Of a DNA stretch of 16,413 bases, positions 13,392-13,983 are shown one piece after another; position 1 is the stretch's first letter, and each line of letters opens with the position of its first letter. Both the position numbers and the translations under genes were made by a program. The notes below the pieces were generated by a model. The model had not been told where the DNA came from. It did no database searches and was given only the letters and a program-made list of their open reading frames with translations. Source of the stretch: a virus (taxonomy: Duplodnaviria > Heunggongvirae > Uroviricota > Caudoviricetes); IMG/VR virus record IMGVR_UViG_3300014970_000032, positions 1-16,413 of that record; one strand, given 5' to 3'.

Positions 13392-13581
13392 CGAGCAGAA
13401 TTGCCGGAGTAACAAAAAAGCGATAGATTACGCGCGGGTGCCTTTCGGCTGATGGTCGGAGGGAATACCTGAAGGCCAGATGTGGAAAGGCCCCGGAAAA
13501 CATTTTTGTTTAACCGAGGCCCTAACCGTCTACCCTAAGCAAGTGATAGGTTAGCGCCTCCCCGAAAAAGGAGCAAGCGCT

Positions 13582-13722
13582 ATGTCGCAAAAATCGCTTA
13601 CGGCCATCACGTTCTGCGTGACGGCAATCCTCATCATCTGGATACTGCACGGTTCGCTGTGCGAAATACGGATGAGCTTCTGGGGAGCGGAGTTTGCGGC
13701 GTTCTTACAGTGTAAGCAGTAA
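13582..13722 (+). CDS. hok: Hok/Gef-family small membrane toxin (46 aa; not in supplied ORF track)
   Basis: Translation MSQKSLTAITFCVTAILIIWILHGSLCEIRMSFWGAEFAAFLQCKQ: N-terminal TM helix plus the SLCEIR and E-x-AAF motifs of Hok/Gef toxins. SD AAGGAG 8 nt upstream of the ATG. Confidence 0.75.
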   Translation: MSQKSLTAITFCVTAILIIWILHGSLCEIRMSFWGAEFAAFLQCKQ

Positions 13723-13731
13723 GGAAACCGC

Positions 13732-13753
13732 GACGGGGGAGCAATCCCCCGTC
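13732..13753 (+). other. GC-rich hairpin with GNRA-type loop in the hok 3' UTR
   Basis: gacggggga-gcaa-tcccccgtc, a perfect 9-bp stem, 10 nt after the hok stop; no U-tract, so more likely a structural element of the mRNA than a terminator. Confidence 0.45.
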
Positions 13754-13810
13754 AATCGGTTGCCAGGGTAAGGTCGATAAGGCACCCTATCTCACAGACA
13801 TGAACAACAA

Positions 13811-13843
13811 ACCCGCAGCGTAAAAACTGCGGGGTTTCTTTTT
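13811..13843 (+). terminator. Rho-independent terminator of the hok transcript
   Basis: acccgcag-cgtaaaaa-ctgcgggg stem-loop followed by tttcttttt. Confidence 0.55.
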
Positions 13844-13983
13844 GGTGTCCTCACCGACTTGAAACAGTGATCAGACTATAAGACAAAGCCCACAATGTAG
13901 CGGGCTTACTCCCCTCCCCCCACTAAATGTGGACGCATCGTGGAACGAAGAGATATAAAACATTATAAATCAATTAGTTATTG

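Follow-up and report, generated by a model that had tools for sequence, protein, structure and literature searches.

In the hok/mok/sok (parB) system of plasmid R1, the paradigm with which Hok/Gef loci are compared, translation of mok up to the Shine-Dalgarno (SD) sequence of hok is mandatory, and toxicity is lost when stop codons interrupt mok ahead of the hok start (PMC9841398). A prophage-borne relative, hokW-sokW of the Shiga toxin 2 (Stx2) prophage Sp5 in E. coli O157:H7 Sakai, has been shown experimentally to be a type I toxin–antitoxin (TA) module dependent on RNase III and Hfq, and it sets a precedent for a benefit to the phage (PMC8621323). A 2026 survey of Hok homologs, in which Mok was not analysed, found 42 of the 45 tested to be toxic (Escalera-Maurer et al., bioRxiv 10.1101/2025.08.07.668861). 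Here we examine a hok locus in the IMG/VR virus record IMGVR_UViG_3300014970_000032, the whole 16,413-nucleotide (nt) stretch of which is referred to below as the window. The locus is very probably a type I TA module of the hok/sok type, part of the cargo of a P2-like (Xuanwuvirus/P88-like) prophage, in which it lies between the ogr gene and the attachment site. Save for mok, it is an ordinary, intact copy of the common Hok/Sok module of E. coli P2-like phages, and it is already known: it is annotated in RefSeq, its family is a textbook type I TA family, and its cluster already figures in a catalogue and in a toxicity assay. The finding as such is of little consequence; what it says about mok may matter more.

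The toxin gene is an open reading frame (ORF) of 46 codons whose SD sequence, GGAG at 13570-13573, stands 8 nt before the ATG, in agreement with the preliminary description of this DNA, which had been made from the sequence and a list of its ORFs. The SLCEIR and E-x-AAF motifs that had first suggested a Hok toxin are present at residues 25-30 and 37-41 (the latter as E-F-AAF), and the peptide has the form expected of the Hok/Gef family: about 50 amino acids (aa), an N-terminal hydrophobic helix and the pattern C..T...LCE......E. It scores 29.0 bits (E 8e-7) against Pfam HOK_GEF (PF01848), above the 22-bit gathering cut-off, with residues 7-44 on profile positions 5-42 of 42, and it matches PHROG 251 (“MokW-like host killing”) over its full length (E 4e-22); no PADLOC model matched it. 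In an alignment with R1-type Hok (33% identity), residues C12, T14, S25-L26-C27-E28, R30, E37 and A39-A40-F41 are invariant, and C12, T14, L26, C27, E28 and E37 stand aligned with R1 Hok, the conserved positions of the survey's Hok logo being C16, T18, L30, C31, E32 and E41 (bioRxiv 10.1101/2025.08.07.668861). The ORF is intact in 62 of the 63 unique variants of the locus in IMG/VR, and comparison with the copy in Stx phages gives a pN/pS of 0.129/0.411 (ratio ~0.3).

The ORF is embedded in what appears to be a complete hok mRNA (Table 1). The leader, put at about 140 bp in the preliminary description, comes to 146 nt if the mRNA starts at G13436, which is both the first position of the matching Rfam model and 7 nt past a putative promoter, TTGCCG-N17-TAGATT. 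The hexamers and spacing of this promoter are kept in relatives that differ in spacer sequence, reading TTGCCC-N17-TAGATT in the Stx-phage copy, TTGAAA-N18-TAGAAT in E. albertii and TTGCAG-N17-TAGAGT in C. braakii; for this promoter, as for that of the predicted antisense RNA Sok, the support is positional conservation, not consensus strength. The Rfam family RF01794, “sok antitoxin (CssrC)”, matches the + strand at 13436-13595 over its entire length (model positions 1-157 of 157; E 4.2e-9) when an E-value threshold is applied; the model stops at the hok AUG and so represents the leader of hok in sense orientation. At gathering thresholds, neither hok nor sok was matched in the window, and Rfam gave just STnc540, near ihfA.

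The 408-nt RNA at 13436-13843 has a minimum free energy (MFE) fold of -174.2 kcal/mol (z -6.7). Projected on an alignment of nine relatives (drawn from E. coli, two phages, Salmonella, E. albertii, an Stx phage, C. braakii and one mislabelled assembly), this fold leaves 94.7% of cells paired and has compensatory changes at 16 pairs, against 2-7 with slid partners. The helix between tac and fbi is 94.8% paired in the nine relatives, and among more distant loci from 22 genomes the tac arm varies (GGGUGCCUUUCGG / GGGUGCUCUGGAUC / GGCGCUUGAGGC), each form with a matching 3' arm. When the RNA is truncated from its 3' end, the predicted fold moves the 5' end onto 13484-13494, as in the tac/ucb stem of the R1 model; this helix is 99% paired in the relatives, its columns being so nearly invariant that covariation is uninformative. 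The GCAA hairpin (helix 18) is paired in 100% of cells with three compensatory pairs, and the helix joining 13531-13547 to 13755-13770 (helix 6) has compensatory changes at five pairs. The hairpin that sequesters the SD (helices 7 and 8) is 92-100% paired, and its 5' arm can pair alternatively with GAGGC at 13516-13520, an arrangement 97.6% paired in the relatives. The GNRA-loop hairpin and the rho-independent terminator reported downstream of the ORF were both recovered. Taken together, the profile matches, the homology of the leader to other hok loci and the covariation in the mRNA fold uphold the assignment of the locus to the Hok/Gef type I toxins.

Table 1. Predicted and observed features of the hok locus and of the adjoining prophage end (window coordinates).
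Feature	Position	Strand	Basis or remark
Ogr_Delta zinc-finger gene	13131-13391		Pfam
Putative hok promoter: -35 TTGCCG (13401-13406), N17, -10 TAGATT (13424-13429)	13401-13429	+	Read from the sequence
Predicted full-length hok mRNA, ~408 nt	13436-13843	+	From the presumed +1 to the end of the terminator T-run
tac element, mRNA 5' end	13436-13450	+	Predicted to pair with fbi at full length and with ucb once 3'-trimmed
Upstream ORF, 24 codons, in frame with hok	13480-13554	+	Probably not a functional mok substitute
ucb-like box GGAAAGGCCCC, alternative partner of tac	13484-13494	+	Predicted fold after 3' truncation
Predicted Sok RNA, ~55-60 nt: short single-stranded 5' tail, then a long hairpin	13485-13541	-	Presumed ends
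Putative Sok promoter: -35 TTGCTC (13576->13571), N17, -10 TAACCT (13553->13548)	13548-13576	-	Conserved hexamers
SD-sequestering hairpin, CUCC (13558-13561) with GGAG (13570-13573)	13552-13582	+	MFE fold
hok coding sequence (CDS), 46 aa, MSQKSLTAITFCVTAILIIWILHGSLCEIRMSFWGAEFAAFLQCKQ	13582-13722	+	ATG start, 46 codons and TAA
GCAA (GNRA) hairpin, 9 bp, GACGGGGGA-GCAA-UCCCCCGUC	13732-13753	+	Just past the hok stop
3' box pairing the Sok-target region 13531-13547 in the full-length mRNA	13755-13770	+	MFE fold
fbi element, fold-back partner of tac	13772-13787	+	MFE fold
Rho-independent terminator, stem 13812-13833, then T-run GTTTCTTTTT	13812-13843	+	Terminator scan
Rfam STnc540 match	13940-14084	-	Covers the attR core
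attR core, perfect 25-nt direct repeat AAAGAAAAAAGGCCGCAGAGCGGCC of attL (1916-1940)	13984-14008		Coincides with the ihfA terminator hairpin

An antisense promoter of the form TTGCTC-N17-TAACCT had been suspected on the minus strand around the hok SD and start, and a sequence of this form was indeed located there, overlapping the SD region on the opposite strand. The motif TTGC(C/T/G)(T/C)-N17-TA(A/T/C)C(C/T)T ranks first or second among the hexamer pairs shortly before the hok ATG in 20 of 22 related loci, which include an R1-like plasmid, where it reads TTGCGC-N17-TATCCT and stands at nearly the same distance from the hok ATG, and copies from Serratia, Mixta, Sodalis and Kosakonia; a looser form, TT[G/T]NNN-N17-TANNNT, is found in 58 of the 63 IMG/VR variants, 57 of them with the -10 hexamer TAACCT. 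With its start placed ~7 nt past the -10 hexamer, the predicted Sok RNA would contain a hairpin at 13523-13486 (-24 kcal/mol, z -3.3), in an arrangement that parallels the one in the R1-like locus; from these features we infer both the existence of Sok and its ends. The loop that would form the target of the Sok 5' end (13530-13547; aligned in L029-L146) is hypervariable among cluster-72 loci that are otherwise ~95% identical (its variants include TACCCTAAGCAAG, TTACCTTGACAAG, CAACCTTCGCAAG and others), a pattern that fits diversified Sok/hok pairing specificity between co-resident copies.

The locus is also widespread. With the 501 nt at 13400-13900 as query, 1767 records were matched; of 5426 complete E. 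coli genomes, 1453 cover at least 80% of the query, and “Hok/Gef family protein” is the annotation among the matches listed. Strain VG38-53E1 has a CDS at exactly corresponding coordinates (WP_000078916.1), after ogr and adjoining ihfA, and its copy differs from that of the window at one position in 501 nt. The locus likewise follows ogr in phages Chuche (98% identity), P88 (94.6%), P884B11, 500465-2 and others, and many Stx2 phages have an 82%-identical version. The locus had been called unannotated, which holds for the ORF track from which the preliminary description worked and does not hold for public databases: PGAP annotates the same hok CDS in near-identical E. coli loci, and NCBI has the identical protein, with isoleucine at residue 21 (I21), under the name “Hok/Gef family protein” for 137 contigs and the form with methionine there (M21) for at least 1000. 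In the 2026 survey these peptides belong to the high-abundance Hok “cluster 72”; its member 72_1621, which differs from the window peptide solely in having M21, was cloned for the toxicity assay together with 72_1589, the Stx-phage form, and 72_1621 is not among the three non-toxic homologs, which come from other clusters (bioRxiv 10.1101/2025.08.07.668861).

Several further records deserve mention in their own right. Many Stx2-converting phages (L004:1670-1810 and further records) carry a cluster-72 hok of 46 aa that is distinct from the published hokW (cluster 35), and in several Stx2 phage records (e.g., the LC6454xx Stx2a phages) nothing is annotated under the hok match. Enterobacterial phage-type hok was also found in assemblies labelled Planococcaceae bacterium UBA3378 (L006), Vagococcus sp. 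WN89Y (L007) and Xanthomonas pisi DSM 18956 (L010), where contaminating E. coli or phage contigs are the most likely source.

Sequence and comparison, taken with the R1 paradigm (PMC9841398), suggest how the module would work. By sequence and comparison, a weak promoter of constitutive type (13401-13429) would give the ~408-nt mRNA from near G13436, in which tac (13436-13450) would be clamped to fbi (13772-13787), the Sok target (13531-13547) would be paired with 13755-13770 and the hok SD would be buried in its local hairpin. On the R1 paradigm, this full-length mRNA would be stable and untranslatable. Slow trimming of the 3' end would remove fbi and let the 5' end re-pair with ucb (13484-13494), and the refolded mRNA would be both translatable and accessible to Sok. 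From the other strand, the family-conserved promoter at 13576->13548 would produce a Sok RNA of ~55-60 nt, fully complementary to the leader at ~13485-13541. As long as this short-lived RNA is present, the duplex would be destroyed (in R1 and hokW, RNase III does this); with loss of the locus, or an end to Sok transcription, Hok would be made, insert in the inner membrane and depolarise or lyse the cell. Our best guess for the present locus is that translation would depend on an alternative hairpin at 13516-13561 that holds the anti-SD (GCCUCC) off the SD, and that Sok would act by breaking this hairpin, by triggering cleavage, or by both.

A number of observations weigh against a functional hok/sok module and have to be set beside those given so far. 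Both promoters match the consensus poorly (8 of 12 positions for hok, 6 of 12 for Sok), and a strict sigma-70 scan of 13300-14050 returned no promoter, the hok promoter being missed because it has only 8 of the 12 consensus positions. Past the predicted Sok hairpin comes only UUUCC, with no clear U-tract, and the hairpin is absent from the list of the terminator scan; both RNAs of the locus are predictions from sequence. The covariance-model search proposed in the preliminary description did recover the full-length leader, and its score of 46.0 bits stays below the 59-bit gathering score and so outside the Rfam threshold; although the homology is clear, the sub-threshold score may explain the lack of an annotated RNA feature in the one RefSeq record that we examined. 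For the protein, the NCBIfam Hok models score far under their cut-offs (30.5 against 89 bits and 21.3 against 73), and the toxicity assay concerns the M21 form, from which toxicity would have to be extended to the I21 form of the window. As for the mechanism, the truncated RNA is still predicted to form the SD hairpin, and the alternative hairpin that would free the SD fits all relatives but is nearly invariant and lacks covariation support. Finally, R1 needs mok and the window has no such ORF; hok could therefore be untranslatable here.

The question of mok is the central one. The preliminary description had seen no convincing overlapping mok, and our scan agrees with it: whatever the frame, no ORF of the window that begins with ATG, GTG or TTG extends over the hok SD or start, and the +2 frame, checked by eye for non-canonical starts, has none upstream of the hok ATG. 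An overlapping frame of the R1 type that reaches the hok SD is absent, UAAG stands where the mok AUG sits in the R1-like locus, and we file the locus as hok/sok without canonical mok. The 24-codon ORF upstream of hok, whose stop abuts the anti-SD arm, was considered as a substitute and rejected as a conserved feature: in relatives it has 6, 8, 10, 15, 17, 19, 21, 22, 24, 61, 78 or 79 codons and in some it is missing, and both of the predicted mRNA conformers have its start codon paired. Within the family at large, mok keeps no constant frame with respect to hok. An ATG is present in distant homologs at 57-61 nt ahead of that of hok; it is in frame with hok in the R1-like plasmid, Mixta and Sodalis copies, out of frame in Serratia (L016-L018) and Kosakonia copies, and in three Erwinia copies (L015, L020 and L022) opens a frame that ends at the hok ATG. 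Where the mok ATG (-57 or -60) is in frame, as in L005:344-559 (the R1-like IncFII plasmid pMTY1886), L021, L024 and L026, the product would therefore be an N-terminally extended Hok and not an out-of-frame Mok. Among the 63 unique cluster-72 variants from IMG/VR, a long ORF runs across the hok start in 23, beginning at ATG -130, ATG -103 or TTG -46, and the other 40, the P88 and Chuche types included, have the mok-less form; the stops that decide between the two fall in the hypervariable loop, which is the predicted Sok recognition region. Because the long ORF occurs in only 23 of 63 variants and the deciding stops lie in that loop, mok is, judging by these alignments, not a conserved part of cluster 72.

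How the locus should be read depends on what is made of these facts. That the 46 codons form a chance reading frame whose Hok-like motifs are fortuitous might be entertained for so short an ORF, which fell under the length cut-off of the ORF track used at the outset, but this reading is already refuted, and its probability is negligible, by the Pfam and PHROG matches, the presence of the locus in ~1450 E. coli genomes, the purifying selection on the ORF and the complete hok mRNA architecture around it. A harder case is that of a real hok/sok homolog that is translationally silent, a disarmed relic which, lacking mok, makes no Hok from its native mRNA and hitch-hikes with the phage. The R1 result with mok stops (PMC9841398) speaks for it, as does the closure of the mok-equivalent +2 frame, in which TGA at 13470-13472 ends the ORF from ATG 13452 and the frame next opens at TAA 13536-13538, leaving a stretch (13539-13712) with no start codon before the hok ATG; moreover, the window type could have lost the long ORF that, in about a third of the IMG/VR variants, runs through hok from ATG -130 or -103. 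The mok-less form is nevertheless the majority form, found in P88 and Chuche themselves, and the conservation of the hok ORF, SD, tac/fbi, Sok promoter and terminator, with compensatory changes and a pN/pS of ~0.3, is not what would be expected of a dead locus; the stops come and go in the hypervariable Sok-recognition loop, with two start codons and frames, a pattern that looks more like incidental ORFs than like the loss of a conserved gene. We consider a silent relic unlikely. The “decayed, silent copy” allowed for in the preliminary description is likewise improbable, every RNA element appearing intact at 98% identity to the Chuche copy; the copy is probably not decayed because it has one difference in 501 nt from that of VG38-53E1, its ORF is intact in 62 of 63 variants with a pN/pS of 0.129/0.411, and all its elements pair, such doubt as is left being due to the missing mok. 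We put forward tentatively, and with more reserve than confidence, the idea that cluster-72 Hok loci of P2-like and Stx phages are natural “two-gene” hok/sok systems without mok, in which hok would be translated directly once the hairpin at 13516-13561 captures the anti-SD, Sok would repress by dismantling that hairpin and/or by RNase III cleavage, and the long ORFs in a third of the variants would be incidental products of the hypervariable loop.

If the module is functional, the benefit to the element may lie in prophage retention, in help with lysis at induction (as for hokW-sokW) or in the exclusion of other phages. An addiction role, which the preliminary description had proposed for the stabilisation of the remnant, would belong to the first of these candidates. 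Selection for the phage life cycle or for defence instead of addiction, through faster lysis and release or abortive infection, is a real possibility that we rate at somewhat less than an even chance. It draws on the finding that hokW-sokW raises the release of Sp5 after mitomycin C (PMC8621323), on the roughly four-fold enrichment of hok in prophages (bioRxiv 10.1101/2025.08.07.668861), on the position of the locus between ogr and the attachment site, where P2-like phages carry cargo, and on the defence-type cargo of the same island, a PD-Lambda-5_B methyltransferase and an OLD/Gabija-like ATPase. These functional results come, however, from outside cluster 72, HokW being a member of a different Hok cluster (35_712; it starts MKQQKAM), and the survey reports no enrichment of hok beside defence systems (bioRxiv 10.1101/2025.08.07.668861). 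Most lysis, capsid and tail genes of the prophage are gone and yet hok was kept, which fits retention or addiction at least as well.

The window is E. coli DNA, and the island that carries the locus in it is a degraded P2-like prophage. Its 25-nt repeats bound 12,068 bp between btuC and ihfA, and within the island a distance of 140 nt separates the end of the hok terminator from the ihfA-side repeat, which places the locus at the attR-proximal edge, as had been described. One flank holds btuE (263-814, -; assigned by position and length) and btuC (877-1857, -; FecCD family), and the other ihfA (14026-14325, -) followed by pheT. The repeat is the terminator hairpin of ihfA, so that integration of the phage takes place in the 3' end of ihfA / the small RNA STnc540 and restores it; on the 3' side of the hairpin (13940-13983), the alignment to STnc540 runs on in prophage DNA with low posterior probability. 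The island encodes an integrase, a helix-turn-helix repressor, a Dam-type methyltransferase, an AAA ATPase, a tail-tube gene, a sheath fragment, a 1039-aa ORF and Ogr/Delta. With hok between ogr and the attachment site of an element bounded by direct repeats, the layout is that of P2-like (Peduoviridae) cargo, and the gene order ogr-hok is the same in P88 and Chuche. Coverage of the window by any one complete E. coli genome does not exceed 56%, which makes this particular remnant a rare one.

Among the other genes of the island, those at 8374-9191 (-) comprise an intact tail-tube gene and a sheath reduced to its C-terminal 101 aa; no capsid or lysis gene was seen among the larger ORFs of the window that were scanned. 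The Dam-type methyltransferase (4342-5187, +) matches PADLOC PD-Lambda-5_B at 9e-122, and the adjacent 565-aa AAA ATPase (5205-6902, +) matches PHROG 3940 at 2e-135, with further PtuA/AriA/GajA-like matches; this pair (4342-6902) is likely defence cargo adjoining the integrase/repressor end of the prophage. The 1039-aa ORF (9876-12995, +), between a truncated gpD-like gene and ogr, had no match in Pfam, PHROG or PADLOC; PGAP names it “MFS transporter” in one genome and seems to label it “hypothetical protein” elsewhere, and it looks like an orphan phage cargo gene in an unusual position.

For annotation, the hok locus is useful in that it marks the ihfA-side end of the 12-kb P2-like prophage remnant, and it may help explain the persistence of that end. 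The missing conserved mok, and with it the manner in which Sok controls translation here, is the only aspect of possible experimental worth: the most abundant phage-borne Hok cluster usually lacks a gene that is essential in R1, and if cluster-72 loci are active, the accepted mechanism of mok coupling is not universal in the Hok family.

Compared with hok/mok/sok of R1, the locus shares a Hok/Gef toxin with the SLCEIR...E.AAF core, a ~400-nt mRNA predicted to be closed by tac and fbi, with a candidate ucb alternative and a terminator past fbi, and a putative Sok promoter, TTGC..-N17-TA.CCT, which lies shortly before the hok ATG on the other strand. It differs in that R1 Hok has 52 aa against 46, with an identity of only 33%, in a Sok promoter that lies ~8 nt closer to the hok ATG, in the absence of mok and in being phage-borne instead of plasmid-borne. 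The chromosomal hokA-E genes of E. coli K-12 encode the same protein family, and the HokA model (NF007290) is the best NCBIfam match; identity with HokA was rejected nonetheless, despite the label “protein HokA” in some databases, since the peptide, at 30.5 bits, is far under the 89-bit equivalog cut-off. The hokW-sokW module of Sp5 is likewise a prophage-borne hok/sok, but HokW has 51 aa and groups with HokD (35_712), and identity with hokW was rejected because the published HokW primers encode MKQQKAM..., that is, a cluster-35 peptide. The closest counterpart is the cluster-72 peptide 72_1621 (WP_000078916.1; gene SF19_gp52 of P88, “MokW-like host killing”), which is the same gene as the hok of the window and occupies the same position after ogr in P2-like phages; there is no difference of substance between them, except that the host of the present copy is a 12-kb prophage remnant and not a complete phage.

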